Below are positions 7,660 to 40,699 of a DNA stretch of 64,000 nt, piece by piece (the first letter of the stretch is position 1; every line of letters begins with the position of its first letter). The notes under the pieces are model-generated. The model had not been told where the DNA came from, ran no database searches, and saw only the letters and a program-made list of their open reading frames with translations. This stretch comes from a virus. Location: IMG/VR virus record IMGVR_UViG_3300032235_000792; one strand, 5' to 3'. A program made the position numbers and the translations under genes.

Positions 7660-7869
7660 TTATGGTAAATCCAGTAAAGTAGATTCAATTTTCGAATCTA
7701 ATTCTTCTTCTGTATATATAGATTCTACTATTGCAATTGCGACATTTTGCATTGTTGCCCTAAAGTGATCAAGCATAGCAGGTGGCCAACCGACTGCTTC
7801 ATGTGGCGTGTATGAGTTCCACACTGCATTATGAATAATCATTAAAGCTTCTTCTTTATTTTTTAGCAT
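7660..7869 (-). CDS. hypothetical protein with C-terminal IESTLLD tail
   Basis: 69 aa ORF in operon. Confidence 0.6.
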   Translation of the reverse strand: MLKNKEEALMIIHNAVWNSYTPHEAVGWPPAMLDHFRATMQNVAIAIVESIYTEEELDSKIESTLLDLP

Positions 7870-8231
7870 ATTTCGCCTTTTATATTAAAAAGGCCAAGAA
7901 AAGTTTTACTATCACCATTTACAAATCTAGAATTTAAACTATTTACAATATCGTCAGCCATATCAAGTGCTAAAATTCTATACTTATAATCTTCACTAAA
8001 AAAAGAAGATACAAAATTAGGTTCGTCTTTTTCGATAGAGAGTCTTAATAGCTTAATTTGATCAGATAGTGATTGTAAACACGTTCCGTTATTAGAATCT
8101 GATATATTAGCGGATATTTGTATAATACAGACCGCTGTGTCTTTGAAGACTTTAGCGTATTTTTTATCATGTATTCTTTTCTCTACAAAAGAAGTCTGAG
8201 AGCATAACATAAGTCTAGCCAAGTCGATCAT
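7863..8231 (-). CDS. hypothetical protein
   Basis: 122 aa, GGAGG RBS. Confidence 0.6.
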   Translation of the reverse strand: MIDLARLMLCSQTSFVEKRIHDKKYAKVFKDTAVCIIQISANISDSNNGTCLQSLSDQIKLLRLSIEKDEPNFVSSFFSEDYKYRILALDMADDIVNSLNSRFVNGDSKTFLGLFNIKGEIC

Positions 8232-8477
8232 TTAATCCTCCATTTTTAATGCAATCACTAAAGCAGATACAGAATCTTTATCATTAAAAACAAAAAGCGG
8301 AACTGGGTCATTTTTGTATTTAAAAACGCACGAGGTATAGTCTTTAGCTATAAAGATCTTTATTTTATTTTTAACTAAAAAAAATCTATTAGTAATAGTA
8401 ATTCTACCCTTCAATAATCTTAAAGCGTCATCAAGATCAGAACTTAAAAATAATAACTTACTAATATGATTAATCAT
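8232..8477 (-). CDS. hypothetical protein
   Basis: 81 aa, coupled to neighbours. Confidence 0.5.
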   Translation of the reverse strand: MINHISKLLFLSSDLDDALRLLKGRITITNRFFLVKNKIKIFIAKDYTSCVFKYKNDPVPLFVFNDKDSVSALVIALKMED

Positions 8478-8934
8478 CCGATTCGTCTTCGTCCAGCAAT
8501 ATATTATCTATCTCTTCAGGAAAGGAGAAGTAGTACAGGTCATTAAAAGTAGATATTTGTTCTTCTATTTCTTTTTTTATTTTTAAATCAGTGTTGTCTT
8601 TGTGGGCTTTGGTTACTCTTTTAGACAGAGTGCTCCAAGTTCTCCAAACAGGGCAGGTCCATCTAGTTAATATACCAGATAGTTTATAGTGACTAGTGAT
8701 AACATTGTTTCCTACTTTAAATTGGATTCCTAATTTATTACTTGAGGTGTCGTGCCATATACACATACTGCATTTTTTAGTAATTAATTCTAATCGATGA
8801 ACTCTTTTAATGTCATGAGTCAAGTCGTAGTTAAATTGACCTGGCCATTTCTTAATATCAGTGTCTTCTAAAGTACTCATCATTCTGTTTAGAATTATGA
8901 GCAACTGCTCTCTCTGCATCATCCTTGTACCCAT
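8470..8934 (-). CDS. hypothetical protein with C-terminal IDNILLD tail
   Basis: 154 aa ORF downstream of thyX. Confidence 0.6.
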   Translation of the reverse strand: MGTRMMQREQLLIILNRMMSTLEDTDIKKWPGQFNYDLTHDIKRVHRLELITKKCSMCIWHDTSSNKLGIQFKVGNNVITSHYKLSGILTRWTCPVWRTWSTLSKRVTKAHKDNTDLKIKKEIEEQISTFNDLYYFSFPEEIDNILLDEDESDD

Positions 8935-9629
8935 CCAGCTGCCTCAGATATTATAGGAAAATTAATAATGAAGTGTTGTTTTATTGCTTCAGCGATCTCT
9001 CTGTGCTCTTTTTGCGTTGCTGGATCTGATCTAAGGTTTATATAATGAACCCATGATCTGAGGGTGCCGTTCATAAATAGTCTTGTCTTTGCTTGTAATG
9101 GAAGAACCGCCCTTGCACATTCTTTAGCGATATTGTTATCTAATGCCCATTTATAGTGTTGAAATGATGCCTTCCAATTCTCTATCTGCCGCTGTTCCCA
9201 CTCTTGTTTAATGTTGTCGGCTAAATCATCTAAAGAGTTTTGTCTATTTTTCTTGTCTTGTCTACGCGCTACATAGATTTCAATGCCACTTTCATCGACT
9301 GATTGGTAGCGTTGACTAAATTCTTGAAAATTGAAGGACCTATGCCTCAATATTTGAGGAGCTATCATTCTTGATGTTTCTATTTCAAATGATGCGTTAC
9401 CCATTTCAAGTATTGACCAATGACCGTGATTAATGCAGTACTTAATTAAGCCAGCATAATTTGGATTTTTTTGATCTGAAGAGCTCACCCTAGCAATGTA
9501 AGCGACTAATCCTTCCATTGTTTGGACATTTTGAATAAATGGAAGTTCTTCTGCTGAAGATACTTCTTTTATAAGTTTTTCAACATACGATTCATCTATT
9601 TTAGTTTGAGAGACTAGTCTAACTTCCAT
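8919..9629 (-). CDS. thyX: FAD-dependent thymidylate synthase
   Basis: HWSILE, RHRSFNFQEFSQRY ThyX motif, KECARAVLP, QKEHR. Confidence 0.95.
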   Translation of the reverse strand: MEVRLVSQTKIDESYVEKLIKEVSSAEELPFIQNVQTMEGLVAYIARVSSSDQKNPNYAGLIKYCINHGHWSILEMGNASFEIETSRMIAPQILRHRSFNFQEFSQRYQSVDESGIEIYVARRQDKKNRQNSLDDLADNIKQEWEQRQIENWKASFQHYKWALDNNIAKECARAVLPLQAKTRLFMNGTLRSWVHYINLRSDPATQKEHREIAEAIKQHFIINFPIISEAAGWVQG

Positions 9630-9967
9630 GCAACCTCTTAAAATAATTTTTTTATAGAATTGATAGTGTTAGATCTTATTGTACTTGATATAGTTTTGTT
9701 AGTTTCAGTAATTGAAATTGAAATAGCAAATAATAAGTAAATTACAACAAATATAGCGACTATGTATTTAGCATTAAAGATATAGTCATCTATCAATAGA
9801 TTGTTTATCATATATTCCTATAGATATAAGAAGTACAGTACAGTACTATACAATACTTCTTATACGTAGCCTACTCAAAATATCAGCAATTTCATTGGAT
9901 AACGTCGATTTCTCTATAAAACAATCTAATTAGTAATTTTAACAAGTTATTCTTGTGATTCATTGAG

Positions 9968-12274
9968 CTACTTGTCCCCTGCTCCTGGATTTGCATTGTT
10001 TACTGCCTCTGGTTGTTCTTGTTTTGGTTTATTGAATTCTAGTTTAATTTCATTATTAGCCACAATAACCTTTACAGTATCTCCCATTTCCAACTCTTTC
10101 TTTAAAATAGGTTTGACTAGTTGTTTAACAATAACATCGTCAATTAACTTTTTGATTGGTCTAGCTCCCATTTCTGGATCGTACCCTTCATCTGCTAGAA
10201 ATTCTTTAGCTTTTTTAGATACGTTTAGTCTAATACCTTTAGGTGTAAGTTTAATTTGAGCTAACTTAATAAATTTCTCAACTATCTTAATAGTTATGTC
10301 TTTAGACAGTGAATTAAAAAGTACTACTCCGGTTAGTTTATTTCTAAATTCTGGGCTAAACGTGTCTTTAAGAACACCGTCCATGCTTCTGCTTTTTGCC
10401 TCTTTCTCATCGTCTCCATCACTATTTAGTCCAACTGGCTTTTTAGTTTTGGCTGCTAATGCTGCACCAGCATTACTAGTCATCAATACTAATACGTTAC
10501 TAAAATCAACTTTATTGTCTCTGCCATCTGTCATTTTTGCACCATCAATGATTCCAAGTAATGCATCATAGACTTTTTTATGTGCTTTTTCAATTTCATC
10601 AAGTAGTAATATCGTGTGTGGGTACTTCATGACTTCATTTGTTAGTACACCGCCCTGCTCGTGTCCTTCGTAACCGGGAGGCGCTCCAAATAGCTTAGCT
10701 ACAGCATGTTCTTCGGAAAATTCTGACATATTTAGTTGAAAAAAATTAGAATCAGTCTGAGCAGCAATTTGTTTTGCTAACTCGGTCTTACCTGTTCCGG
10801 TTGGACCCAGCAATAAAAACGAACCAATTGGTTGCCCCTCGTCCCTTAATCCAGCTTTAGCTAGCTCAACCTGCTCAACAACAGTATCAATTGCCTGATC
10901 TTGACCAAAGATGGACGACTTAATGTTGCCAGAAATATCAACGTATGATTCTTTTTGCCTTGTTTTCTTAAAAGCCGAAACAGGTGTTCCTGTTATGTTT
11001 GAAACAATCTCTTCAACATCATCAACTGATGCGTCGACTCTTGATCCACCAAGAGTTGTTTTAATTCTAGCACCGACTGAATCCACTATCGATATTGCTT
11101 TATCTGGAAAAAACTGATTCGTAATGTATTGTTTAGATAATTCTATGACTCTTTCAAGTACTTCTTTAGAGTATTTAACACCATGATATTGCTCTAAAAC
11201 AGGTTTGATACCTTGTTCAAGGATTCTAAGTGTCTCTTCTCCTGTCGGTTCTTCAATTTTAACTACCTGAAACCTTCTCATTAAGGCTTTATCTTTTAGT
11301 ATTTTTTGATTGTATTCATCGTCTGTTGTTGCACCGATACAACTTAAATCGCCGTTGGCTAGACCTGGTTTAATCATATTGGCTAGATCGACACCTTCCT
11401 TACTTCCACCTGCTCCAGCACCCATGACCTGGTGAACTTCATCTATGAAGAGAATCGCATTGATTCCTTCTTTCTCTTTCATAGTTTTTAAATCTTGAAG
11501 TACACCTTTGACCTTCTCTTCGAATTCACCTCGAAACTTTGAACCAGCCAAAATATTGCCTACGTTTAAAGAATAGACTCTTGACTTTCTTAATGATTCT
11601 GGCACTAGGTTTTGTTCAATCATTGATGCTAGACCTTCAACAACTGCGGTCTTACCAACCCCAGGTAAACCTACTAGCATAGGATTCTTTTTCTTATAAT
11701 GAGCAAGAATCTCAACCATCCGTTCCACTTCTTTACGTCTACCGATCAGTGGATCAATTAACTTCTTACCGGCTCTAGCATTTAGATCTTCACATAGCTC
11801 ATTAATAAACTTGTATTTACCTTTGGCATTCACAGAAGACTCAGGATCGTGCTTGTATCCAGACTTCTTTAAAAAATAAACGATGTACATGTCTGGATCA
11901 GACTTGGCAAGAACAAATATTGCGTTTATCATGTCTTCAAAATACATAGGTCTTTGATCTTTGGACGCAGCTTTTTTGCAAAGTTCAAATACTTTGCTAA
12001 GCTCTGGTGTCATGGTTGGCTCTAATTGATTAGACCTGTTCATTAGAGTCTTAACTTGAGAAAAGATCTCGAGTTGAGCGTCTTCTACTTCAATGTGATT
12101 ATCTAAAGAATCTTTGAGGAAGTCAAGATCTGCGCCTTTTGCCTTTAAGAAAGCAATATTTTCTTTAAAATCATCTTTAAGGCAATATCTAAAAAATTTA
12201 CACACAGATATTGTGTTAATGTTTGACTCAGAAATCACTCCATTAATAACTTCTTCAGTGATCTTGTTAGTCAT
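9968..12274 (-). CDS. clpA: ClpA-like two-ring AAA+ unfoldase
   Basis: Walker A GLPGVGKT and GPTGTGKT, Walker B LFIDE/LLDE, KFRGEFEE, GAPPGYEG, ClpP-docking-like PVGL loop, no middle coiled-coil; adjacent clpS. Confidence 0.92.
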   Translation of the reverse strand: MTNKITEEVINGVISESNINTISVCKFFRYCLKDDFKENIAFLKAKGADLDFLKDSLDNHIEVEDAQLEIFSQVKTLMNRSNQLEPTMTPELSKVFELCKKAASKDQRPMYFEDMINAIFVLAKSDPDMYIVYFLKKSGYKHDPESSVNAKGKYKFINELCEDLNARAGKKLIDPLIGRRKEVERMVEILAHYKKKNPMLVGLPGVGKTAVVEGLASMIEQNLVPESLRKSRVYSLNVGNILAGSKFRGEFEEKVKGVLQDLKTMKEKEGINAILFIDEVHQVMGAGAGGSKEGVDLANMIKPGLANGDLSCIGATTDDEYNQKILKDKALMRRFQVVKIEEPTGEETLRILEQGIKPVLEQYHGVKYSKEVLERVIELSKQYITNQFFPDKAISIVDSVGARIKTTLGGSRVDASVDDVEEIVSNITGTPVSAFKKTRQKESYVDISGNIKSSIFGQDQAIDTVVEQVELAKAGLRDEGQPIGSFLLLGPTGTGKTELAKQIAAQTDSNFFQLNMSEFSEEHAVAKLFGAPPGYEGHEQGGVLTNEVMKYPHTILLLDEIEKAHKKVYDALLGIIDGAKMTDGRDNKVDFSNVLVLMTSNAGAALAAKTKKPVGLNSDGDDEKEAKSRSMDGVLKDTFSPEFRNKLTGVVLFNSLSKDITIKIVEKFIKLAQIKLTPKGIRLNVSKKAKEFLADEGYDPEMGARPIKKLIDDVIVKQLVKPILKKELEMGDTVKVIVANNEIKLEFNKPKQEQPEAVNNANPGAGDK

Positions 12275-12284
12275 TTCTTCTCCT

Positions 12285-12626
12285 TTATGCTTTTTCTATT
12301 GTAAAAGCTAACATTTTTATTTCTTTAGATCTTTGAGGAATCATTTGAACTAGTGTTTCTTTAATTGTACTAATTAAAACTAATTTCATCTCCGCAACTT
12401 CTTTGCTGTAAGTTCCGCATTTACCTCTACCTTCATAGTTAACTTTGTTAGCTACTTCTAATGCTTCTTTATTTGACATTTCAAAGGCATTGCACAAAAT
12501 AATAATAACTTCTTCATATGAAGTGTAATCATTGTTGTGAACAATTACATCATATTTAGATGGTTCTTTTATTTTTTCTTTTTCTGCAACTGCGACGTCA
12601 GTTCCAATTACTGTTTTAGTAGCCAT
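12285..12626 (-). CDS. clpS: ClpS adaptor (atypical pocket residues)
   Basis: PSKYDVIVHNNDYT...CGTYSKEVAEMK...TIEKA; directly upstream of clpA as in bacterial clpSA operons. Confidence 0.88.
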   Translation of the reverse strand: MATKTVIGTDVAVAEKEKIKEPSKYDVIVHNNDYTSYEEVIIILCNAFEMSNKEALEVANKVNYEGRGKCGTYSKEVAEMKLVLISTIKETLVQMIPQRSKEIKMLAFTIEKA

Positions 12627-17977: not shown

Positions 17978-18190
17978 CTATTCATCTAAAAAGATGGTTT
18001 CAGTTATTAAATCAGAAAGTTCTTGACGCTTTTTTATAAGCTTTTTAAGCATTGTTTTACTAAAATTCTTATAACTAGTTTCAACCTTAATTGAGTTAAT
18101 TATACCTTCATGCTTCTTTATATCTCTAAGAATATCTTGCAATTCTATATCTAGTTTCGCTAGTGCTACAGCTTTTTTAATCTTTATCAC
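17978..18190 (-). CDS. hypothetical protein (C-terminal ITETIFLDE)
   Basis: 70 aa, overlapping operon. Confidence 0.55.
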   Translation of the reverse strand: MIKIKKAVALAKLDIELQDILRDIKKHEGIINSIKVETSYKNFSKTMLKKLIKKRQELSDLITETIFLDE

Positions 18191-18392
18191 TTAAAATCTC
18201 ATTTACTAATGTTTTCAATGACTTATTGCCATCCACGTCCTTGTCTATGAAGATAACAGAGTCGAATCCGTACCCCCAAACTACAGACGTTGAGTTTTTC
18301 TTTACTTCTTCTATAAATTTAAGAAATATATCGCGTTGCTTGTCGTCCATTGTTCTCCGAATAACGCCGTTATGCGCTCGTAGCAGTGTCAA
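18177..18392 (-). CDS. hypothetical protein (C-terminal VNEILSD)
   Basis: 71 aa; start uncertain (ATG of MDDKQ has a GGAG RBS). Confidence 0.5.
   Translation of the reverse strand: MTLLRAHNGVIRRTMDDKQRDIFLKFIEEVKKNSTSVVWGYGFDSVIFIDKDVDGNKSLKTLVNEILSDKD
18379..18391 (-). repeat. TGACACTGCTACG 13-mer, dispersed copy
   Basis: plus strand reads cgtagcagtgtca; exact match to copies at 33-37 kb. Confidence 0.9.
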
Positions 18393-19120: not shown

Positions 19121-19621
19121 TTATTTTACCAAATGGCGCAGATGTTCAGGTAAAGCATCTGCATTAATACTAACAGAAGGACTTTTCTCTGCTTTAATTT
19201 GAGCGATCCTATTGTTAAGGGCTGTTGCTACATCTTTTTCAGCCTCTGTTCCAATAGTTACTTTAAGTAACTTTCTTAATTCTTTGACTTGTGAGTCGCC
19301 ATTCCCAGTTCTAGTGCCTTTATTCACAACTTGATATTTAGTATTGCCGTTAAGACGAGTGTCTTTCTTAACCCAGTTAGATATCAAACCACTACAATAT
19401 TTATTTAGCTCTGCATCTGAGTTAAGCTTTGATTTAAAGTCATCACTGACGGCAATAGTACCATTGTTGAATTCAGACACCAACTTTGATCTTACGTCTT
19501 TTTTCATAGCTGAAGTCAAAACACTCTTAACATCATTGCCTGGTGTGAATGCAACCCCATTATTTTTAAGAACAGAAATAATAGCATCAAACGTTGCTTC
19601 TCTTTGACTTTTTTTTGACAT
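19121..19621 (-). CDS. paralogue family A protein
   Basis: SQREAT...KYCSGLISNWVKKD..LNGN..Y...GTRTGNGD...ALPEHLRHLV. Confidence 0.85.
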   Translation of the reverse strand: MSKKSQREATFDAIISVLKNNGVAFTPGNDVKSVLTSAMKKDVRSKLVSEFNNGTIAVSDDFKSKLNSDAELNKYCSGLISNWVKKDTRLNGNTKYQVVNKGTRTGNGDSQVKELRKLLKVTIGTEAEKDVATALNNRIAQIKAEKSPSVSINADALPEHLRHLVK

Positions 19622-19773: not shown

Positions 19774-20109
19774 TTAAGTAGACCTTTTTTCATTAGTAAG
19801 TTCTCTTTCAAATAATTCGTTTATAATAGCATCTATGGTAATCTTTGCTCTTCTTTGAAGACCTTTATTGTCTGCAGTAACTATGTCCTGCAGAGTCTTA
19901 GAATCTAAATTGCACAAGTTTTTTCTGTATTGTTCATCTAATGCTTCTCTAAGCTGCAAAGCCTCTTCTTCTGTCAGAAGCGTATCCATATATCTTTCTC
20001 TAATTATTTCATTACTGTAACCTAATTTATTTACAGCATCACTGTAACAAGATGATGAAGAGCTCCACAGCTCAGCCAGTCTCTTTTTTGAAAGACTTCT
20101 GCGTTTCAA
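19774..20109 (-). CDS. hypothetical protein
   Basis: 111 aa ORF. Confidence 0.55.
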   Translation of the reverse strand: MKRRSLSKKRLAELWSSSSSCYSDAVNKLGYSNEIIRERYMDTLLTEEEALQLREALDEQYRKNLCNLDSKTLQDIVTADNKGLQRRAKITIDAIINELFERELTNEKRST

Positions 20110-20349
20110 TGTTTGCCCTGTCTATCTCTTATATTTTTATTATCACTATGAATTCTGTCTACCATCTGATTCATATAGCGAGCCTGCTCTCTACTGTTAA
20201 TTTCTTCTAGAGTTCTCTCACTTGTCCTATCTTTTACACGTACAGGTACATGCTGTGAATTATTTTCTGAACTATTTGCAAACGCAATAGTTGCAACGGT
20301 CAAGGCCGCACCGATAAATAACGCGATTAAGATTATTTCCATTTTATGC

Positions 20350-20571
20350 TCACTTGTTAATAAATTGCATTACTAGTTTCTTTTGTTCTTCGGACAGGCT
20401 AGAAAAGTCTACGGAATTTTTTTCTGAACCTTCAACGAACTGTCTAATTTCATCAATTGACGCTAATATTGCTTTTGCCTTATTTATACCAAAACTAATT
20501 ATACGGCGATCGTCGCTCATAATAGAAAGCGTCTTGCTGCCTTTGTATTCACCAACTTCTGTCTTAAACAT
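20350..20571 (-). CDS. small hypothetical protein (EYKG...SFGINKAKAIL)
   Basis: 73 aa, AAGGAG RBS, own TAACAGA promoter motif. Confidence 0.7.
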   Translation of the reverse strand: MFKTEVGEYKGSKTLSIMSDDRRIISFGINKAKAILASIDEIRQFVEGSEKNSVDFSSLSEEQKKLVMQFINK

Positions 20572-20782
20572 TGTGTCTCCTTTATTTGTTGTATAGATAA
20601 ATTAAATCTGTTAAAGAAACCGTTGCTCTGTAAGTCCTAATTCATATAGCATGTAGAACAGACAATCTGTAAGATGAGTGTCTAACATACTCTCTAAGTA
20701 TTTAACATACTGTTCTACTTCTTTTTTAAGAAGTATCATTGTATCATTTTGATATGCAGGCTTCAACAACTGTTGATTGATA

Positions 20783-22217: not shown

Positions 22218-22850
22218 TCAACTATTCTTACCAATAGACTTATCACTGAAGTACCTCGCTATAAATGATTCTATCTCAGAGATAGACACTGGCCTATAAT
22301 TATTTGCTGGAACTCCGACATCATATTGCTTATCTAGTGTCTTAACACTTTTACCGCTATTAGGAGAGTGTATGTGTCCATGTAAATGAAATTGTCCTTC
22401 ATTAGCCACTGAGTAAGCTTGATTCTTGTGATCTCCATGCCATAGGCTATCTGCTGTTGCGCCTTTCATATCAGAAGTATCTTCTCGACGCACGCCAAGC
22501 AATGGGCAATGAGATAGTGTGACTCTATGCTTGCCTATATAAATAGTCGCTTGGTGCATCACCACGTCAAACCCCATATCGTACATTGCGTTGTAACCAG
22601 GATCGTGGTTGCCAACTACGAATACCTTAGTACCATTTAACTTAGACACTACTTCTTTGACCATAGACTTATTCATACCCATATCGCCAAGGAAATAGCA
22701 TATGTCTCCGTCTTTAACAGCAGAGTTGTAGTTATTGATTAGCACTCTATGCATGTGATCTAGGTCTTTAAACGGTCTACTGTCAAATACAATAGCATTT
22801 GCATGACCAACGTGCCAATCTGATGTAAAGAACGTGTTAATCCTCTTCAT
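22218..22850 (-). CDS. calcineurin-like metallophosphoesterase
   Basis: SDWHVGH, LGD, GNHD, SHCP, HGHIH motifs; start re-called to MKRIN. Confidence 0.9.
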   Translation of the reverse strand: MKRINTFFTSDWHVGHANAIVFDSRPFKDLDHMHRVLINNYNSAVKDGDICYFLGDMGMNKSMVKEVVSKLNGTKVFVVGNHDPGYNAMYDMGFDVVMHQATIYIGKHRVTLSHCPLLGVRREDTSDMKGATADSLWHGDHKNQAYSVANEGQFHLHGHIHSPNSGKSVKTLDKQYDVGVPANNYRPVSISEIESFIARYFSDKSIGKNS

Positions 22851-23014: not shown

Positions 23015-23332
23015 TTACGCATAAGTCCCCAATATTATTTTACTAACCAGATGGTCCTCAATTGCAGAGCGTATCTCATCGTTGCTCCAAGCATGCGACC
23101 TATAATAGTTCTTTACCGTATCTTTACTTATTATGGGCTCATCTCTATTAAAATAGACAGTATTATTTTTTAGAATATAAAAAGCATTTTCTGTACAGTC
23201 ATTCCAATCGCTAAATCTATAACTAAATATAATATCTTCGTCATCGACCTTAAATTCATAGATATATAGAGATCTAGTGCCGCCATATCGGCTTTCTCGG
23301 CCTGATAAAATAATATCTGGCTTGTCACTCAT
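23015..23332 (-). CDS. hypothetical protein (N-terminal KPD, C-terminal VSKIILG)
   Basis: 105 aa; may be a distant member of the KPERxPD family. Confidence 0.6.
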   Translation of the reverse strand: MSDKPDIILSGRESRYGGTRSLYIYEFKVDDEDIIFSYRFSDWNDCTENAFYILKNNTVYFNRDEPIISKDTVKNYYRSHAWSNDEIRSAIEDHLVSKIILGTYA

Positions 23333-24133: not shown

Positions 24134-24379
24134 TCATGATAATAGCTCCTTTTCTGCTAACCAATTAAGGTATCCGTTAGTCACCACTTCTTCCTCGTTT
24201 CCGCCTAGATAGTACTCGTTCCACGTTCTATCTCTTGGATCGTAGAACATAACATCAAGATTTTCAGTTACTTTTATATCATAAAGAAAATCTTCTTTAG
24301 AGTTCCATTGAACACCTTCTTCAAAGAAGAATTCCCAATCTTCATGAACAAAGTCCGGATCTCTTTCTGGTTTTTCCAT
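24134..24379 (-). CDS. KPERxPD family protein 3
   Basis: tandem paralogue of the two upstream ORFs. Confidence 0.8.
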   Translation of the reverse strand: MEKPERDPDFVHEDWEFFFEEGVQWNSKEDFLYDIKVTENLDVMFYDPRDRTWNEYYLGGNEEEVVTNGYLNWLAEKELLS

Positions 24380-24381: not shown

Positions 24382-24636
24382 TTAATCCAACAGTATATTT
24401 TCAAGTTGCCAATCTATGTAAGCTTTGAATATATTAGCAGAATCATTCTCACTACCAAGATCATGGTTATCGTAGCGCTTCCATCTGTCCCACTTTTCAT
24501 CGTAGAAAACTATATGATTTTCTCTAGCCTCTAGATAATAGAGCTTGTTTTCTCTTTCATTCAACTGAATCATTTCAGTAAAATAAAAATGCCAAAAGCC
24601 TAAAGTGAAATCAGGTTGTCTTTCTGGCTTAGTCAT
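24382..24636 (-). CDS. KPERxPD family protein 2
   Basis: MTKPERQPDF...FYFTEMIQ...AYIDWQLENILLD. Confidence 0.8.
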   Translation of the reverse strand: MTKPERQPDFTLGFWHFYFTEMIQLNERENKLYYLEARENHIVFYDEKWDRWKRYDNHDLGSENDSANIFKAYIDWQLENILLD

Positions 24637-24637: not shown

Positions 24638-24877
24638 CTACCCCAATATTATGTTTTCAACTTGCCAATTTAGATAAGCTTCACTAACTAGGTCTCGATC
24701 ACGTAAGCCATATTCGACCCATTTATTAGCTCTTGCACTAAAAAATTCAAAAACTAAATCTTCAGATACACGAATATCATAAATAATATTGACGTCAGAG
24801 TTCCACTGAATCATCTCTTTAAAATAAAAAGAGTAGTAACCTATTATTAAATCTGGCTCTCGTTCTGGTTTTCTCAT
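24638..24877 (-). CDS. KPERxPD family protein 1
   Basis: MRKPEREPDL...FYFKEMIQW...AYLNWQVENIILG. Confidence 0.8.
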   Translation of the reverse strand: MRKPEREPDLIIGYYSFYFKEMIQWNSDVNIIYDIRVSEDLVFEFFSARANKWVEYGLRDRDLVSEAYLNWQVENIILG

Positions 24878-25279: not shown

Positions 25280-25510
25280 ACTTAAATTAACCTAAATCAG
25301 AATACTTTAACAAATAATGATACTCAGTATCAGATAAGTTCCAAAAGTCTGCACCTTCGCATTCGTGGAAGGTGTATCCTCTAAACATGAAGAAAGGCTC
25401 ATCAGTTGGTACGCGCTTTTCTTCACTTCCATCTTTTAGAGTCATCAAGAATGCACTTTCACCAAAACTAACTAGATCTTTAGCAAAATTGTTCATGATG
25501 TATCCTTCTG

Positions 25511-25714: not shown

Positions 25715-25936
25715 AGTTTACCCCTTTCTAATTCTTAAAAATAAGAGGAACGCTAGTACAGCCCATAAATAAACTATCACTTTAGTCTCCCAGACGACTC
25801 GTAGAAAAGAGTGTGCTGTTCATTTTCTGCATTTGTTAATTCTCTATGAGATGAGCAAGATTGAAGCAACATTGAGATAAAGATTAAAGTTAAAATTTTC
25901 ATCAACACCTCCATTTTTTAGAAAATATAAAATCCG

Positions 25937-26494
25937 TTAAAGATATGGGTCGTCATCGAGCATTGCAGAGTATTCTGCAGAATCTGCCCTGTCCTGCATT
26001 ATGTGCTTGAAAACATTGTCTGGTATTATCTTATTCTCGCAGTATTTTAAGAACTCTAATGTTAGAGCTCTTTGTTTTGAAAAAGCCTCTATCTCAGCTG
26101 GATTAGAGTAGTAGTCTAAGCCGGACAACGACACACCCTTCCAAAACCTAGTTCTCCTAGAAACAGGAAACAATCCAAGTATGTACGTTGTTTCTTTACC
26201 AAAATGAAGTTTGCCTTTTATAAATTGTTGTGCGTGCACCATTTCATGAGCTAAAGCCTCCACCATGCCAAATATCGTTATTCCTATTTTTATCTCTATA
26301 TCGATTCGGTAAACAAGATTATTTTCATCTATTAATGCAGTACAGCAACCTGCTACATTACCTCTTCCAATATTATCTACAGTTTTAACTTGAAGAGGTA
26401 TAGGTGTCTCGCCTATATCTAGTGATACACTAAAAAATTTTACAGCATCTGCAAATAGTTCAGCATCTAATGACTCTAATCTTTTAGAGATCAT
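25937..26494 (-). CDS. putative zincin metallopeptidase
   Basis: ALAHEMVHAQQ plus downstream PAEIEA. Confidence 0.7.
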   Translation of the reverse strand: MISKRLESLDAELFADAVKFFSVSLDIGETPIPLQVKTVDNIGRGNVAGCCTALIDENNLVYRIDIEIKIGITIFGMVEALAHEMVHAQQFIKGKLHFGKETTYILGLFPVSRRTRFWKGVSLSGLDYYSNPAEIEAFSKQRALTLEFLKYCENKIIPDNVFKHIMQDRADSAEYSAMLDDDPYL

Positions 26495-26866
26495 GTTTAT
26501 AGTCTTCTATAATTTAGTGTTATAAAAAACAACATAATCATTGCCGTAATTAAAGAGCCTAAATCTAATACTCCGACGGACAGTGCTTCTACAAAACTAA
26601 ACGCGCAACGTATTACAGATGCAAAAAAAAGTCCAATCATAATTAGTGTATTGTCTCTCTGAGAGAGGCCAAATCTTTCTAGAACTTTATCGTGAGTACC
26701 AGAAAAGAAATATAAAACTAGTAAAGCTAATAATACTAAGCTGACCATAAGTTCCTAATTTCGCCTCAATAAGCGAAGTTGAAGTTTATCTATATTTTCA
26801 TCTAAAGTCTTAAAGTTAATTAAATTTAATCTAAATGCTGATCTTAATAAATTTGCCATGATCATT

Positions 26867-27169
26867 TCATCCATCTCGTTTCCTATATAAAGAGGTAATT
26901 AATAGTGTAATTCTTGATCTGCCTACAGGGTTTGCACTTACACATTCTATTTTTTTAGGCAGGAACTGTAGGTTTTCTTCAAGCCAACACATTATATCGT
27001 AACCCGTCTTCTCTTTACCATCATTATCAAATGAAGCTAAGTCGTGATCTAGCAGCAGTAGATCCCAAGGACCATTTAGTTCTAATTGTCTTATACCTTC
27101 ATTAAAATTACGAGCTAGAACACTAGCCTCTGGTAATTCTCTTGAGTCATCTATTGCAAGTGTTCTCAT
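26867..27169 (-). CDS. stand-alone receiver-like domain (cyclic-phosphate-processing type)
   Basis: LAIDDSR, LLLDHDL, TGYDIMCWL, SANPVG. Confidence 0.7.
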   Translation of the reverse strand: MRTLAIDDSRELPEASVLARNFNEGIRQLELNGPWDLLLLDHDLASFDNDGKEKTGYDIMCWLEENLQFLPKKIECVSANPVGRSRITLLITSLYRKRDG

Positions 27170-27618
27170 ATTTGAGGTAGCCCTAGTAAGATATCGTTAA
27201 TCTCAGTCTCTAAGACGATCCTATCCATTTCAGATACACCAAATCTAAACCTTTGCCCTAGAAATTCTATTGTGACTGCCTCTACGGTATTGCAAGCAGT
27301 TTTGCGTTGTTTAGTTTTAAATTTTCTTTGTAGCTCTAATCTGAGAGGTCTATTTTCTTTAGTAAATTTAGCTAGCTCTTTACGAGCAAGAATATATTCA
27401 GCATTTGCTGTGCTAATATTTTTACGCAACTTGTATAGTGGAGTTTTTAGATGTTTACCTGATATTGTGTTATTTAGTTTTTTATCGATAATTTTAGTTA
27501 AATAGCAAACTTTTTGCCTTTTATTAAAGCGATCTCTAGCTAAAACATTCCTTTCTTTTATTAGCCTAAATAAGTCCAAGATGTCGTCATTTATATATAA
27601 GTCCATGTCGCCCTCCAT
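27166..27618 (-). CDS. basic hypothetical protein (C-terminal INDILLG)
   Basis: about 150 aa, own promoter motif and GGAGG RBS. Confidence 0.6.
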   Translation of the reverse strand: MEGDMDLYINDDILDLFRLIKERNVLARDRFNKRQKVCYLTKIIDKKLNNTISGKHLKTPLYKLRKNISTANAEYILARKELAKFTKENRPLRLELQRKFKTKQRKTACNTVEAVTIEFLGQRFRFGVSEMDRIVLETEINDILLGLPQI

Positions 27619-27840
27619 TAGTTAATAAAAATATATTATATTTGTTATTGTACGAGGTGACCTTAGTCGTCTGAGCCTCCTGATTCTTCAATTAAGTTAT
27701 TTTCAACCTGAAGTTGTAAACTATGTAGAGAGTTTACTGCGGCTTCTGCAGTCAGAACTACTTCAATATTAGGATTACTATCCACTAAGAATCTAAAGTA
27801 GTTCTTCCCCTCTTCAAGCATTCTCCAAGTAGGGTGTTCG

Positions 27841-28146
27841 TCAAAGCGCATCCGTCATCTCCTCTACTAACATTTTATCTATCTGATTATTTAACCAGTT
27901 GTTATAATACTTTTGATGATCTGAATGATGATGTCCGCCCATCTGCTCTCTTGAAGGCATACCCATATCAACCCACCTACAGAATATTTCGTATGTTGCA
28001 TGGCTATACGGCGATAATGGAAACGAGTCCAGTCTTATCGAATCTGACTTAATAAAGTGAAAGATCTTTACATTATCTTCTTCGTAATCTTTCTCATAAA
28101 AGTAGTTAACCCCATTATACGAGTAAACAAACTCATCGCTTTGCAT
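27841..28146 (-). CDS. hypothetical protein (C-terminal IDKMLVEE)
   Basis: 101 aa, GGAGG RBS. Confidence 0.6.
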   Translation of the reverse strand: MQSDEFVYSYNGVNYFYEKDYEEDNVKIFHFIKSDSIRLDSFPLSPYSHATYEIFCRWVDMGMPSREQMGGHHHSDHQKYYNNWLNNQIDKMLVEEMTDAL

Positions 28147-28636
28147 CTAAGTCCTCCATATAGTGAGAATTTTCTGGTACATAGCAGTTGTCTATCTCAT
28201 ATTGATTAAACATAAAAGATCTCATAATACTATTAGGGCAGTCGCGTCTATATTCAAGCATAGAATCATCATGACCTAAGTTAAATACACAATGCCCCAA
28301 CTCATGAAATATAAGCTGCTCTTTTTGCTCTTCAGAGAAGTTCGACCAGTGCATTGAGTTTATCTGAATCTCCCTGTATCCGTCTGACCAAACATAACAT
28401 ACGCCTGCCGTACTTAAATCTAGCTTCCTAGAAATTACTGGCACTCTAACCTTTACAGCAAACTCTTCTTCAAAACTGTTAACATAAGGTAAAAACTCTG
28501 GGCTTGTTTTATGTTTAGTGTGTGGCCGCTTGCCCATGTTTAGCATATCAGATAAAGTATTGCCACACGCAATATTTAACATTAAACAAACTAGAGGTAC
28601 GTAAGATGATTTCATAAGTAAATCACATACACTCAA
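28133..28636 (-). CDS. putative metzincin-like metallopeptidase, probably exported
   Basis: HELGHCVFNLGH zinc motif, SIM Met-turn, hydrophobic N-terminus ending in IAC. Confidence 0.75.
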   Translation of the reverse strand: MSVCDLLMKSSYVPLVCLMLNIACGNTLSDMLNMGKRPHTKHKTSPEFLPYVNSFEEEFAVKVRVPVISRKLDLSTAGVCYVWSDGYREIQINSMHWSNFSEEQKEQLIFHELGHCVFNLGHDDSMLEYRRDCPNSIMRSFMFNQYEIDNCYVPENSHYMEDLDAKR

Positions 28637-28846
28637 TAAACAGAAGAATTATATTCTGGTTTATCTTCAAGCTTTATTATCTCTTGAATAACATTATCAA
28701 GTTTAGAATAAAGTTCAGCTGTTCCGTCATCATCTGCCATATCAAGATAACTCATTGCACCAATCACTGCGCTCTTGATAAAAGAGATTTCAGTTTTAAG
28801 TTGTCTTTGCTGTTTCTCTTTAATTAGTTGTTTTGCTGTACTCATA

Positions 28847-29092
28847 TTATAAACCCTCCACTTGTATGCCTTGAGATCTTAAAAACTTAATAACTTCAGC
28901 TTCGCTCGGAGTTCCAACTGCAGCATCTAATAGCTTTTGAGCATCAATAGCTTTTTTCTTTGAGCCGAAAGAATTGCGCTCTCCAACTTTTTGAGCTTTA
29001 CCACCACGAGCTAAGAATTCTTCAGCTGTTTCTAGTTTAATGTTGTTGAATTTTTTTCTAGTATTTTCTTCAGCATACCACTTCATTGTCAT
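28847..29092 (-). CDS. small protein with SutA-like (RNAP-binding) motif
   Basis: AEEFLARGGKAQKV resembles the SutA-type FLxxGGxI motif. Confidence 0.45.
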   Translation of the reverse strand: MTMKWYAEENTRKKFNNIKLETAEEFLARGGKAQKVGERNSFGSKKKAIDAQKLLDAAVGTPSEAEVIKFLRSQGIQVEGL

Positions 29093-29502
29093 TTGAACCT
29101 CCCATTTATATCATAAAAATATATTATATTTGTTAGAGTCAAATGTCTTAAGTTTTTAAACTTAAATAAGGTTTAATCTTGTAAGCATGTGCTTTAGATG
29201 AACTCGATAATGATGACCTATACCTATTAAAGGTTTCATTAGCTTAACCTCCGAATAAGTGAATTATGTTTTGCTTTATCGCCTGAGTTTTAGTCATGTT
29301 TCTAGTGTACAATGAGGTAAAGCCATGATTAGCGTGCCAAATACCTCTATGAAGTTGAATACCAAAATCAGCATTTTCATCTCCACTTATTATGCGGAGA
29401 ACAATGCTAGCGAAAATTGCTTCACCGAAATGTTCATCTTCTTCTTTTTGCGCTAGATATATTCTCCTACCAAACATAGAGGATAGCCTGTATACGAAGG
29501 CT

Positions 29503-30174
29503 TTAATCTTCAATATCATAGACCCTCACTGGCTCATTTTTATTATGCTTTGCCATCAGTTCTTGATAGCCAGAACCTGAAAAAACAAAATTTATAGCTA
29601 CTCTTCTACTATTAGATCTAGGCGGTGAACTAGCATGGAACTGCTTCGCACTCATTATTACCGCTCTACCCTTTTTAGGAGATACTCTATGATTAACAGA
29701 CACAGATGTATTAACTTGCCCAATTTTAGCACTCTCATTGAACACAAAAGTATCACCATCAGAATCGCACACGTAATAGAGCAGTATCATTAAATTATCA
29801 GAGTCGTTACTAAATACATCTGTGTGAGCGGGATTATGGAAGTTGTCCGGAAAGTCCGGCTCTCTTATCAAAGTGTGTACTTTTGCTCTAAAGATATGGT
29901 GGCACTTAGCTCCAATTTTTTGCTCAATAAACCAAAATATAGGTTTAACTAATTCAAAGTAAGAGCTATTTGATCCTGTATTTTCTGTATAAAAGTTATG
30001 AGCAAATTGATGGCTATCTCTTGTGAAATCTGTATCAATAACATCTACGTCATATTCTTTACTGCTTGATTTTGCTGTGTGCGGAAGATAGTACCAAGGA
30101 AAACTGGAACTTAGAAAAGTATTTTCTAACTCATTAATGTAAGTTTCTGGTAAAAAGTCTTCTATTATAATCAT
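29503..30174 (-). CDS. 2OG-Fe(II) oxygenase
   Basis: IIEDFL, PAHTD (HxD), LYYV..SDGDT, FHAS..P, RRVAIN. Confidence 0.85.
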   Translation of the reverse strand: MIIIEDFLPETYINELENTFLSSSFPWYYLPHTAKSSSKEYDVDVIDTDFTRDSHQFAHNFYTENTGSNSSYFELVKPIFWFIEQKIGAKCHHIFRAKVHTLIREPDFPDNFHNPAHTDVFSNDSDNLMILLYYVCDSDGDTFVFNESAKIGQVNTSVSVNHRVSPKKGRAVIMSAKQFHASSPPRSNSRRVAINFVFSGSGYQELMAKHNKNEPVRVYDIED

Positions 30175-33310: not shown

Positions 33311-33535
33311 CTACTCTTCTAGCATCTTGTTGATGGCCAGAGCTGCTCTGACTTCTGCTAGTAGCTCATCGTCATCACTGGCATAGGACTCGTACTCCTC
33401 TAACAGCTCTTGATCTGTCATATTGCGCAGCCCCGGAAAGTTACCGCCATAGAGGATATAGTCTCTGAGTTCAAAACAGCCATACATGTCATCGAACAGT
33501 ACATCCATCAGCTTGTTTCTAGTAACTTCGTCCAT
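33311..33535 (-). CDS. acidic small protein (C-terminal INKMLEE)
   Basis: 74 aa, AAGGAG RBS. Confidence 0.7.
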   Translation of the reverse strand: MDEVTRNKLMDVLFDDMYGCFELRDYILYGGNFPGLRNMTDQELLEEYESYASDDDELLAEVRAALAINKMLEE

Positions 33536-33588: not shown

Positions 33589-34071
33589 CTAGCCTACTAA
33601 GTGACGTAGGTGCTCTGGGAGAGCGTCAACATTGATCTCTACTTTAGCTTCGGGCTTGATCTCTGCTAGTCTAGCATCAATCGCTTGTTGAACTTGTGTT
33701 TTAGTTTCAGCATCAGTAACCGTCTTGAGTAGAGCTTTAAGAGCTTTGATCTGAGCGTCACCAGAACCAGAGCGAGAACCTGGGTTTTTGGTGGTATAGC
33801 TCTGACCATTGTTGAACTGCGGGTTCTTTCTAATCCAGTTATCTAGTAGGCCAGAGACATACTTCTTAAGCTCGGAGTCAAAGGCATACTTATCACTAGC
33901 TTCGGCTGACATCTGGACTTGGCCAGAGCGGAAGCCAGCGACCAGCTTCTCTTTCATAGTATTCTTTTGCTCTGAAGTTATGATGTCGGACAGCACGACT
34001 TCACCGCCCAGCTCATAGTTAGGCACTACAGACATGACAACTTGAGTAACTGCATCTTTTTGACTAATCAT
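33589..34071 (-). CDS. paralogue family A protein
   Basis: AGFRSGQVQMSAEASDKYAFDSELKKY...KNPGSRSGSGD...LPEHLRHL. Confidence 0.9.
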   Translation of the reverse strand: MISQKDAVTQVVMSVVPNYELGGEVVLSDIITSEQKNTMKEKLVAGFRSGQVQMSAEASDKYAFDSELKKYVSGLLDNWIRKNPQFNNGQSYTTKNPGSRSGSGDAQIKALKALLKTVTDAETKTQVQQAIDARLAEIKPEAKVEINVDALPEHLRHLVG

Positions 34072-35759: not shown

Positions 35760-36248
35760 CTAGCCTAGCAGGTGGCGTAGGCTTTCAGGTATCAAGCTCG
35801 CATCGATCTCGATCTTAGGTTTCAACTCTTCAAGACGCTTATCGATCTCGACTTGGATGGTTGCCTTGACCGAAGGGTCGTTGACAGTACTCATCAATGC
35901 TCTCAGAGCTTTCAGCTTCTCGTCACCAGACCCGCTTCGTGATCCAGGATTCTTGGCTTGGTAAGTGTTGCCGCCGTTGAACTCAGGTGCCTTACGCAAC
36001 CAGTTGTTCAGTAGTCCGACACAGTACTTGCGGAGCTCGGAGTCGAAGGCATACTTGTCACTAGCCTCGCTCGACATTTGGATTTGACCCGAGCGGAACC
36101 CAGCGATCAGCATCGCCACAGCGTTCTCCTTGTCACTCACGGTGAACACCTCACTCACAGGTGTCTCGCCATTGAGAGTGTAGTTAACACCACGCTTAGA
36201 AAGAGTAGCTAACACGATAGAGACAGTTGCTTGACGTTGATTAACCAT
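35760..36248 (-). CDS. paralogue family A protein
   Basis: very similar to 37372-37857; start re-called to MVNQRQ after GGAGG. Confidence 0.9.
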   Translation of the reverse strand: MVNQRQATVSIVLATLSKRGVNYTLNGETPVSEVFTVSDKENAVAMLIAGFRSGQIQMSSEASDKYAFDSELRKYCVGLLNNWLRKAPEFNGGNTYQAKNPGSRSGSGDEKLKALRALMSTVNDPSVKATIQVEIDKRLEELKPKIEIDASLIPESLRHLLG

Positions 36249-36412
36249 ACGAGATCCTCCCAAGGATTAAGCGCGCACGACATGTGAGCACTATTAGTTA
36301 ATTAATATAATTAAATAAGTTATATATTTAATTATAAATAATATTAAAGTCTGTTAAATTATATAGCGGCGTAGCAGTGTCAGTAGGCCTTGCGGCCTAC
36401 TGCACCAGATAA

Positions 36413-37362: not shown

Positions 37363-37371
37363 AGTTAACCT

Positions 37372-37857
37372 CTAGAGTAGGTGGCGTAAGCTCTCAGGGA
37401 TCAGATCAGCATTGATCTCGATCTTAGGCTTAAGCTCTTCGATTCGCTTATCGATCTCAGATTGGATCGTAGCCTTGGTAGTAGGATCACTTACCTTAGA
37501 CATCAGAGCTCGTAGGGCTTTCAGCTTCTCATCACCAGATCCCGTTCTAGATCCAGGGTTCTTAGCTGTATAAGCATTACCACCGTTGAACTCAGGAGCC
37601 TTGCGGATCCAGTTGTTAACCAGACCAACCACATATTTCTTAAGTTCAGAGTCGAAGGCATACTTATCAGAAGCCTCAGAGGACATTTGTATCTGTCCAG
37701 ATCGGAAGCCCGCGACCAGCTTGTTGACAGCTTGTTCCTTGTCAGTTACCGTTAGGACATCTGCGATACATTGCTCACCGTTTAGGTTGTAGTCGATACC
37801 GCGCTCAGAGAGAACAGATAAGATAACAGATACAGTTGCTTGACGTTGAGATACCAT
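37372..37857 (-). CDS. paralogue family A protein
   Basis: MVSQRQATVS...GLVNNWIRKAPEFNGG...IPESLRHLL. Confidence 0.9.
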   Translation of the reverse strand: MVSQRQATVSVILSVLSERGIDYNLNGEQCIADVLTVTDKEQAVNKLVAGFRSGQIQMSSEASDKYAFDSELKKYVVGLVNNWIRKAPEFNGGNAYTAKNPGSRTGSGDEKLKALRALMSKVSDPTTKATIQSEIDKRIEELKPKIEINADLIPESLRHLL

Positions 37858-38690: not shown

Positions 38691-39393
38691 ACCAGCGCAA
38701 TTCTCCCATCCATTCTATAAACTCATTGAACGATGTTGCTCTATCTATGAGATCTAACCGTCTCAACATGATGAACACGTCTCTAACTGTCATAACCTCG
38801 TGCCAATCGTCTGCTTGCTGATTCACGGCTCTACATCCTTAACCACACCGATGCACCCGACGCTACCCGCGCCATCCGGTAGCTTGTTTATCTCGTACAT
38901 ATCTTCTGTCGAAAATATCCATATCATATCCAACTGGTCGATATCGTTAAATATTCGCCCCAATATCAACCACATTATCTTTCTGGCCTCAAAATCTTTC
39001 ATATATAGTTATTATATAGCCAATCTGCCCCAAGTCATCTCGAGTTACGCGCAGACCAGAAAGGCCGATTAAATTGAGCGAATTAAGGATCTTCAGGATC
39101 GGGCATAACGCCTCGAGATCACGGCCAGCAAATACGCGCGCACTATGATGTAGTTGTGACTTATTTGTCACGTGATTTCCGATCAAGGTAGATGACGACC
39201 CACGGTGCGGCCAGTGTTGCGACAAGTTGTGCGCCAGCGAGCATAACTCGCAGTAGTTCATAAGTGGTCATTTAAGACCCCCATCTTTATTAAGACAGTA
39301 ATGACGCGGTAGAGCTTGCGTTTATCTTCGAAAGGTAAGCTTAGGAACGCGTTTGAGCAACGAAACATGTTCGCTCTAGTTCTCAGAGCATGT

Positions 39394-39594
39394 CTAGTAG
39401 GTTTCACGACTGTCTCCGTTTATGATCGCTTGATAGATCTTCATTTGAAATGAATTGCACATAGTATAGTATTCTTTCGCTGTTATGACACGAAGCTTGT
39501 ATAGGGAGTACAACATTAGACCATGACGAGAGAATGTCTCGTGGATGGATTTAGCGTTATCAGAGCAGGTAAGTAAGTATTCTTGATAGTTCAT
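39394..39594 (-). CDS. hypothetical protein
   Basis: 66 aa, first ORF divergent from the sigma gene. Confidence 0.5.
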   Translation of the reverse strand: MNYQEYLLTCSDNAKSIHETFSRHGLMLYSLYKLRVITAKEYYTMCNSFQMKIYQAIINGDSRETY

Positions 39595-39703
39595 ATAGTT
39601 CTTTTAAGTTATCAACAACTTATGCGGTAGGGGCCCCCTAACCGCTTCGCGGGACATTAAAAATGCTTGATAATATTATACTATGTTACAGTATAATAAA
39701 TGC

Positions 39704-40390
39704 ATGGACAACATAGTCAAGACATACTTAGAACAAATGGGTGCAATACCGATGCTTAGCGTGAAGGAAGAGGCGCGCATCGCTAAATTAGCATTTGAAG
39801 GTGATCAAGAAGCTAGGAAGATACTCATAGAGTCTAACTTGAGACTAGTTGTTTCTATCGCTAAGAAATACACCAGCTCAGGCATGGACTTACTAGACCT
39901 CATCCAGGAAGGTAACATCGGCTTGATGAAAGCAGTTGAAAAATTTGAGTATAAGCGCGGACATAAGTTCAGTACTTACGCTACATGGTGGATAAGGCAG
40001 GGAATAACAAGATCTATTGCAGATTCCGGTCGTACCATCAGACTGCCTGTTCATATGGTAGAAACAGTTGGCAAGATATTCCAGTCTATACGTGAAATAA
40101 TATACGACACCGGAAAAGAGCCAAGTGTTGCAGAGTTATCTAAGTATATGGGAATAACTGAAAAGAAATTAAGAGAAGCACTTGATGTAGCCAAGATACC
40201 AGTCTCGCTAGATATGAAGATATATGATGACTCGGCAAGCTTAATGGATAAAGTCCCTGATATAAAATTAGATTATCATTTAGATAGAGTCGATACGGCA
40301 GATCTCTCTAAGAATATAAAGATAATATTGAAGACTCTCACCCCAAGGCAAGAAAAAATACTGAGAATGAAGTTTGGGATTTCAGATTAA
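39704..40390 (+). CDS. RpoD-like sigma-70 factor truncated before region 4.2
   Basis: region 1.2 ([12 protein letters not shown]), [52 protein letters not shown]; ends at [10 protein letters not shown]; start re-called to MDNIV. Confidence 0.9.
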
Positions 40391-40498
40391 CGATTTCTAA
40401 TATCTAACAGAACAGCTATCATCATATATAATCTCATTTGAATCATGTCTAGTTCTTCCTTGTTGTTCCAGAAAATCCTAGTTTTGTTCATCTTGCTC

Positions 40499-40699
40499 CT
40501 AGACATCCAGCAGTATCTCTTCTGCCAGTTTATCCAGTGCCCACTGGACACGTGTTGCAGTTCCAATTGACTTTCCAGTATTTAGAGTTAGTGTCAGGCA
40601 CTTGTCCATGAAAATACATTTGTGGCATTTTGGGACAGCATCCTTGTCTTTGAAACAATCGCCGTCTAATTCTATGATTCTTTCGTATATATCATCCAT
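40499..40699 (-). CDS. small Cys-rich protein (C-terminal AEEILLDV), probably leaderless
   Basis: start re-called to MDDIYER, TATAAT 7 nt upstream. Confidence 0.6.
   Translation of the reverse strand: MDDIYERIIELDGDCFKDKDAVPKCHKCIFMDKCLTLTLNTGKSIGTATRVQWALDKLAEEILLDV

Follow-up and report, generated by a model that had tools for sequence, protein, structure and literature searches.

The stretch of DNA analysed here (the window) is 64 kb of an uncultured phage (IMG/VR record IMGVR_UViG_3300032235_000792) that has no close relative among GenBank phages; near-identical DNA was found in lake-water metagenomes from several studies. The window carries a minus-strand block of approximately 100 mostly small genes (581-40735) and a structural block on the plus strand that starts at the terminase. 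Pfam identified a trypsin-like peptidase, a DNA ligase, a ribonucleotide reductase, ThyX, and a sigma factor in which only regions 1.2, 2 and 3 are present, in addition to the ClpS, ClpA-like and two ClpP-like proteins listed in Table 1. Our subject is a short sequence, phi-[DE]-x-I-L-L-[GED] (phi, hydrophobic; x, any residue), hereafter the tail, that is shared by the C-termini of small proteins in the minus-strand block. No block of unexplained genes in virology is known to be larger than the early ORFans of phages.

Relatives were reached in IMG/VR via the terminase and the ClpP-like protein, and three genomes were taken in full, with genes called by the same script as for the window. These are G001, which is complete (166,618 bp with terminal repeats) and has a terminase 53% identical to that of the window, G006, which is also complete (165,836 bp), and G007, a 57.9-kb fragment. 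The ClpA proteins of G006 and G007 are 88% identical to the window ClpA. We scored tails in two ways. A strict regular expression, [ILVMA][EDNSQ]x[ILM][LIF][LIV][DEG], was written post hoc on the window tails, and a match was counted as C-terminal if it ended no more than 8 amino acids (aa) from the protein end. A position weight matrix (PWM) was trained solely on tails of a four-cysteine (4-Cys) family described below and scanned on 799 other proteins, belonging to 394 BLAST families, from all genomes. A window tail was counted as supported at a PWM score of at least 6 nats, and the cross-family test used at least 7 nats. Window gene 40499 belongs to the training set and its own score is circular.

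A sequence-only reading of the window had claimed a shared tail on 14 proteins. All 14 peptides are present at the genes named, on the minus strand, and 8 of them are supported by the PWM (Table 1). The ends of 17978, 18177, 19774, 27663 and 33311 are not, and 24134 has a weak variant in which E replaces I. With 8-9 of the 14 tails supported, the observation is confirmed in part, and the relatives make a much stronger case for it. Gene 24134 is homologous to 24382 and 24638 over its full length, and its AEKELL variant also occurs in G001_139562. These three KPERxPD paralogues are the only bearers of the tail that BLAST relates to each other in the window; the other bodies are dissimilar, as had been noted. 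The tail is also absent from enzymes and structural proteins, in agreement with the sequence-only reading: the largest bearer has 154 aa, and the best-scoring G001 protein of 180 aa or more reaches 4.7 nats. Searches with the bearers in Pfam, PHROGs and NCBIfam returned nothing significant, the ESM Atlas yielded no usable match, and 27166 matched no family in Pfam or PHROG.

Table 1. Window genes for which the tail had been claimed, followed by the Clp-type genes of the window. Ends that follow an ellipsis run up to the stop codon.
Gene	Coordinates	Strand	Product	C-terminal end	Tail core	PWM score (nats)
24382	24382..24636	minus	84 aa, KPERxPD family	...YIDWQLENILLD	LENILLD 24385-24405	7.7
24638	24638..24877	minus	79 aa, paralogue of 24382	...YLNWQVENIILG	24641-24661	9.1
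24134	24134..24379	minus	81 aa, paralogue	...YLNWLAEKELLS	24137-24157	2.3
27166	27166..27618	minus	150-aa ORFan	...ETEINDILLGLPQI	27181-27201	8.5
27841	27841..28146	minus	101-aa ORFan	...NNQIDKMLVEEMTDAL	27862-27882	6.1
8470	8470..8934	minus	154-aa ORFan	...PEEIDNILLDEDESDD	8491-8511	8.4
7660	7660..7869	minus	69-aa ORFan	...DSKIESTLLDLP	7669-7689	6.7
23015	23015..23332	minus	105-aa ORFan	...DHLVSKIILGTYA	23027-23047	6.2
40499	40499..40735	minus	78 aa, 4-Cys superfamily	...LDKLAEEILLDV	40505-40525	12.9, circular (training set)
33311	33311..33535	minus	74 aa, borderline	...ALAINKMLEE		-1.9
17978	17978..18190	minus	not a motif member	LITETIFLDE (claimed)		0.4
18177	18177..18392	minus	unsupported	LVNEILSDKD (claimed)		0.8
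19774	19774..20109	minus	unsupported	LFERELTNEKRST (claimed)		-3.6
27663	27663..27851	minus	unsupported as this motif	QVENNLIEESGGSDD (claimed)		0.3
clpS	12285-12626	minus	Pfam ClpS, 3.8e-18			
clpA-like	9968-12274	minus	Pfam AAA_2, AAA, ClpB_D2-small			
ClpP-like gene 1	19-588	plus	Pfam CLP_protease (1.3e-31 and 1.5e-31 for the two ClpP-like genes)			
ClpP-like gene 2	6972-7688	minus	Pfam CLP_protease (E-values as for gene 1)			

The strict expression gave 7 C-terminal matches in the window compared with 1 internal match and 0.06 expected, a comparison that is circular because the pattern is post hoc. Applied to G001, the same window-defined expression gave 25 C-terminal matches compared with 9 internal ones, where 0.47 were expected; G006 and G007 each had 4 C-terminal matches. 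Outside its training family, the PWM at 7 nats or more gave 21 C-terminal matches from 14 families, with 17 internal matches and 0.76 expected. It is these data from outside the window that decide the matter. Bases 1-50000 of T4, which hold 84 genes (49 of them small), had no C-terminal match, and this rules out a generic feature of small proteins in AT-rich phages. The number of bearers per genome is 8 in the window, 4 in G006, 4 in G007 and 29 in G001, all of 154 aa or fewer, and BLAST sorts the 33 strict bearers into 21 families. Because the enrichment found with the PWM crosses families and T4 has none, we conclude that the tail is a real motif, specific to a clade of roughly 165-kb lake-water phages, that occurs on many unrelated proteins. 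A literature search found no description of a shared tail of this kind, and the motif, the 4-Cys family and the overlay with ribosome-binding sites described below are new in this analysis.

Hidden paralogy of all bearers was also considered. It is partly true, in that 17 bearers from G001 belong with window gene 40499 to one superfamily (alignment A1), yet 14 further BLAST families carry the tail. In this superfamily, four Cys and the LL of the tail are invariant. Its members have an N-terminal helix with LTxxDIExL, then C-x(9-12)-CxxC-x(8-12)-C, and then a long C-terminal helix ending in phi-[DE]-x-I-L-L-[GED]. A profile search of 1.84 billion representatives found only 25 proteins; this is a new, rare family of small proteins that is defined here. 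Members outside G001 keep the tail (ENILLGK, EKILLES, EDILLDT). By contrast, three proteins from public metagenomes, P0016 (595 aa), P0017 (268 aa) and P0022 (263 aa), repeat the 4-Cys domain 2-5 times in tandem and lack the I-L-L tail, and the profile match in these stops at position 64-67 of 78. Since the domain is complete without the tail in the repeat proteins, the tail is an add-on to it. Elsewhere, too, the tail is present in one homologue and absent from another, for example between G001_151671 and window gene 20350.

Two other groups of genes in G001 were seen in the course of this work. Between 125.6 and 137 kb, 4-Cys genes alternate with a repeated family of 109-122 aa with Trp-rich ends (FMIWVEGLI, YYLLWEWLDI, FIWWIYNE, FVYWIERVTK), as if cassettes of two or three genes had been repeated in tandem. 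At least 6 proteins of 55-196 aa (140147-142136, 150579, 152197-153025 and 158597) end in NYLAD[LK]EIE[RK][MI]L followed by a short polar or acidic end (DE, DEE, DERT, GKREG or STQ). The strict pattern missed this ending, which is related to the tail more loosely.

The tail is better conserved than the proteins that bear it. Among orthologues in the window, G006 and G007, the last 14 residues of 24382, 27166, 27841 and 8470 are 64-86% identical, compared with 33-49% for the bodies. The individual values, tail and body respectively, are 86% and 49% for 24382 with G006, 79% and 33% for 27166 with G006, 86% and 36% as well as 71% and 37% for the two orthologues of 27841, and 64% and 33% for 8470 with G007; the G007 orthologue of 27166 gave lower values (50% and 24%). 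Two orthologues of 7660 end in AETILLDSSTDSIK and AERIILSEDNHIK and fit the motif better than 7660 itself, and the end of 33311 is kept in G006 (ALAIDKMLE; 79% versus 63% identical). No orthologue of 23015 or of 18177 was found among G001, G006 and G007. Of the remaining ends, that of 19774 is only 14% identical to its G001 orthologue, the orthologue of 17978 retains another ending (IITESMFLEN), and those of 27663 end in LEVENQLTNQE and LEVENQLINQE. Near-identical lake reads and contigs from four runs differ from the window at 87 positions; none of the 40 that were listed lies within a tail, where only approximately 1 was expected, too few for this to be informative.

Within the G001 tails, the core I occurs in 21/25, the first L in 24/25 and the second L in 24/25. 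The first Leu is encoded by all six codons at near background usage and is never replaced by Phe. Since these codons vary synonymously, selection acts on the protein, and a DNA motif in place of a protein motif is ruled out. These comparisons of sequences support purifying selection on the tail and an action that is exerted by the protein.

Models made with AlphaFold2 suggest where the tail lies in two of the families. The 4-Cys protein was predicted to have a helix at 9-20, a Cys-rich region, and a helix at 51-70, with a mean predicted local distance difference test (pLDDT) score of 73 that rises to approximately 80 in helix 51-70. The model of the 24382 family (pLDDT 89.5) has six strands and a helix at 65-83, in which pLDDT is approximately 93 up to residue 80 and 67 over the last four residues. 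Neither model had a Foldseek match at E of 0.001 or below. A VIA-wide fold search with the 24382 model gave Z scores of 4.8 or less, mostly to PH-like domains capped by a C-terminal helix, and Y73 and W76 within the C-terminal helix of this family are invariant. With phi as position 0, the 47 bearers tend to repeat hydrophobic residues at -9/-8, -5/-4, 0 and +3/+4/+5, which is a heptad-like spacing, and position -3 is acidic or Asn in 79%. The core ends 0-8 residues ahead of the stop. From [GED] to the end the composition is 25% E, 17% D and 13% G, and the last residue varies (E in 12, L in 7, D in 6, K in 5, and others). On at least two different folds, the tail is thus predicted to form the final two turns of a C-terminal helix that is long and amphipathic. 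The sequence-only reading had suggested a modular terminal helix shared by many otherwise dissimilar accessory proteins, and this is supported by 14 further families, a predicted helix on two folds, and a 4-Cys domain that also occurs without the tail.

The reading that we consider most likely, and hold tentatively, is that the tail is a docking epitope for one common partner. Its extended form is h-h-x-x-h-h-[DEN]-x-x-phi-[DE]-x-I-L-L-[G/D/E] (h, hydrophobic) followed by 0-8 mostly acidic residues. I-L-L would form a hydrophobic face, flanked by a conserved acidic residue, that fits into a groove of the partner, and in this way many different small early or accessory proteins (154 aa or fewer, from at least 12 unrelated families) would be brought to the same place. 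The partner would be a conserved phage or host protein because the core is unchanged between clades with terminases that are 53% identical.

Several points weigh against docking. No partner for the tail was found; that the tail binds one, and that the partner is single, is what we infer. The tail lies in a confidently predicted helix and may pack on the body of its own protein, and for 24382 the weak PH-like matches would make this helix an element of the fold. Dozens of clients for a single site would be unusual. The statistics also have limits. A naive de novo motif finder run on the last 15 aa of the window proteins did no better than on internal windows. In a scan of the window with a reduced alphabet, the top C-terminal pattern was the acid-x-x-h-h-acid of the sequence-only reading (10/25 occurrences), and 9 of 100 random-truncation controls equalled its score. 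From the window alone the enrichment is only suggestive, and it is not significant once the search for a pattern is paid for. When the 4-Cys superfamily was collapsed to one protein, an unbiased scan of G001 still ranked a...hhG first but was no more than modestly significant, with 2 of 60 controls reaching its score. One expanded family, in which the tail is shared by descent, makes up roughly half of the raw count; the other half or so consists of unrelated ORFans without a Pfam, PHROG or NCBIfam family.

There are known systems that resemble docking of this kind. In T4, which offers the nearest precedent on record, gp43, gp55 and gp33 have interchangeable hydrophobic-acidic C-termini that act on the gp45 clamp (PMC2988020); in the T4 record, gp43 ends in SLDFLFG and gp55 in SLDFLYEAND. 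As with the phage tail, these are short hydrophobic-plus-acidic C-terminal epitopes on unrelated proteins that share one hub, and the pattern is also alike, with an acid, a hydrophobic triplet, G or E, and a few acidic residues. However, the spacing is different (phi-D-x-I-L-L compared with L-D-F-L-F in T4), and the 8-29 clients here are all small ORFans, whereas T4 has 3 clients and the polymerase of these phages is tail-less. In addition, no gene for a clamp or clamp loader was found in these phages, and their tail is part of a long helix. A second comparison is with the cargo-loading peptides of encapsulins, which act inside an HK97-fold shell. These are likewise portable C-terminal tags on unrelated bodies that are read by one protein surface, but they have another consensus, and the tail bearers are found in the early block and not in the head module.

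A broader form of docking, which we regard as possible and less likely than docking as such, is an address system that spans the proteome. In this case the portable helix end would dock dozens of unrelated, fast-evolving early proteins on one conserved hub, new genes would acquire the handle to join, and the 4-Cys family would be a library of diversified effectors. The hub could be the sliding clamp of the host, RNA polymerase, or the conserved pair of phage ClpP proteins acting via a host unfoldase. If a shared handle of this kind exists, many early ORFans act at one site, the tail peptide could be used as bait for the hub, and the tail could serve as a mark of effector genes in metagenomes.

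The tail could also be a structural or self-association element without a common external reader, in which the helix end packs against the core of the protein that bears it or takes part in homo- or hetero-oligomeric coiled coils and the Gly or acidic residue is a helix C-cap. The models place the tail inside long, fairly confident helices, the hydrophobic periodicity upstream of the core is heptad-like, and the invariant Y73 and W76 of the 24382 family lie in this same helix. The weak fold matches of that family are to PH-like domains, which a C-terminal helix caps. We nonetheless think this rather unlikely. The same I-L-L occurs on different folds, whereas packing surfaces and coiled coils normally tolerate exchange among I, L, V and M; the confidence of the 24382 model falls in its last four residues; and the 4-Cys domain is complete without a tail in the repeat proteins.

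The sequence-only reading had named the ClpA and atypical ClpS encoded by the phage, together with ClpP, as an obvious candidate reader of the tail. This part is not supported. The other readers that it named, RNA polymerase, a clamp or a capsid-loading factor, remain candidates. G001 has the most tails (29 bearers in a complete genome), yet it gave no match to ClpA, an AAA_2 unfoldase or ClpS in searches that were positive for G006, and it keeps only the two ClpP-like genes. The position of the motif 0-8 residues from the end, with acidic residues after it and no fixed last residue, also argues against ClpA and ClpS. Co-folding of the ClpA N-domain (1-150) with ClpS and the 24382 family gave a score of 0.00; it was run without controls and we counted it neither way.

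Degradation could involve other readers, with timed destruction of early proteins via ClpP1 and ClpP2 of the phage and a phage or host unfoldase, or via host Lon or ClpXP. The two ClpP-like genes have orthologues in G001, G006 and G007, the tail is restricted to small early proteins, and in the clade of the window two bearers sit between clpA and a ClpP-like gene: 8470 lies between thyX/clpA and this gene, and 7660 is directly upstream of it. SsrA-type C-terminal degrons of Clp proteases require an apolar free C-terminus, and the DD variant of ssrA blocks ClpXP. The phage tail resembles the ssrA degrons read by ClpX or ClpA with SspB in being a C-terminal peptide that would give many proteins a common fate, in a phage that has Clp genes. 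It differs from them in that it is not at the extreme C-terminus, is trailed by acidic residues and is abundant in G001, which lacks ClpA and ClpS. An apolar extreme C-terminus with a free carboxylate is not what the phage tails have. The tail is also predicted to be helical and ordered, and not an exposed, disordered tag. We consider a degradation tag unlikely.

The surroundings of the Clp genes are mixed. ThyX (8919-9629), a phosphoesterase (PHROG 547; 22218-22904) and a 2OG-Fe(II) oxygenase-like protein (29503-30174) are encoded on the minus strand amid small early genes, so that the apparent Clp operon is a mixed block and not one dedicated to proteolysis. Adjoining the ClpP-like gene on the opposite, plus strand is a 148-aa mini sigma (6225-6671) with sigma-70 region 2 only; its G001 orthologue matches PF04542 at 1.2e-10. 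A conserved 107-aa ORFan (6652-6975) adjoins this mini sigma directly after the ClpP-like gene, which it overlaps in the window, G006 and G007; in G001 it is 25 nt downstream.

A special case of docking is that the tail binds the beta sliding clamp of the host or a phage clamp that was not recognised. These phages have a DnaE-type (Pol III alpha) polymerase of approximately 1345 aa (59753-63784 in G001 and 25298-29341 in G006), and no PolA or PolB was detectable in them. No protein matched PF00712 or PF09116 and none was above the cut-off to PF13177, although a divergent clamp could escape this search, and neither a clamp nor a clamp loader turned up when 10 G001 proteins were scanned against PHROGs. 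Because a DnaE-type polymerase is present without a detectable sliding clamp or clamp loader, dependence on the host is expected and replication probably borrows the host clamp. The style of the tail also resembles the ends of T4 gp43 and gp55 (PMC2988020). When 97 G001 proteins with orthologues were screened, only a gp55-like mini sigma of 121-126 aa (20272-20652 in G001, 144690 in G006 and 31846 in G007) had a loosely tail-like conserved end. This hydrophobic-acidic end reads W..N[LI]E[ET]VL[GQ]E plus 4-6 residues that are mostly acidic. It recalls the end of T4 gp55 that binds the clamp, and is only a lead.

Other results make the clamp a very unlikely partner. At their C-termini the DnaE-like polymerases read NIQEIELIQ (G001) and NLKEIEIIK (G006) and have neither the tail nor a tail-like clamp motif, and the end of the mini sigma scores no more than 1.3 nats with the PWM. 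The tail does not fit QL[SD]LF or QLxLxL, as the position where Leu4 would be expected is polar (QLENILL, QVENIIL). Clamp-binding peptides bind in an extended conformation, whereas the tail is predicted to be helical.

The second Leu of the tail behaves differently from the first at the DNA level. It is strongly biased to NNG codons (p 5e-12), and, read with the codon after it (GAG, GAT, GGA or GGG), it gives GGAG or GGA. In G001, 20/25 tails carry GGAG across L-[GE]-[ED], a Shine-Dalgarno sequence that lies 4-10 nt ahead of the next, overlapping start, and a Shine-Dalgarno-like 4-mer is found in 26/47 tails compared with 7.7% of random coding 15-mers. The odd equivalence of G, E and D at the last position of the motif can be accounted for because this position doubles as the Shine-Dalgarno sequence of the next gene. 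This is a clean case of dual coding, in which the last position of a protein motif is shaped by the ribosome-binding site of the following gene. The other 94 GGAG sites of G001 lack an upstream ATA-YTR-YTR, which rules out a general extended ribosome-binding site (ATAYTRYTR-GGAG). That the whole tail is a by-product of gene architecture, riding with a module of gene end and ribosome-binding site that was spread by recombination for translational coupling of densely packed genes, is highly improbable, since the overlay covers no more than the last one or two positions, the residues phi, [DE], I and the first Leu are kept while their codons vary, those 94 sites do without the upstream sequence, tails are kept where no next gene is close (gaps of 58-277 nt or the end of an operon), and orthologous tails are conserved over 10-14 residues.

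Two other features of the early block were also seen. A single-copy tRNA-Met (CAT) lies in the middle of the block (25203-25279, minus strand), and contigs from other lake samples break or diverge near it (loose ends at 25203-25281). A second family with many copies, whose proteins have 150-170 aa and no sequence match in Pfam, PHROG or PDB, is present 5 times in the window, all on the minus strand (2748-3212, 19121-19621, 33589-34071, 35760-36263 and 37372-37857), and 16 were aligned across the relatives. It has the conserved core NNWxRK...LNGG...KNPGSRxGxGD and a conserved C-terminal end of its own, [IL]PExLRHL[VL].

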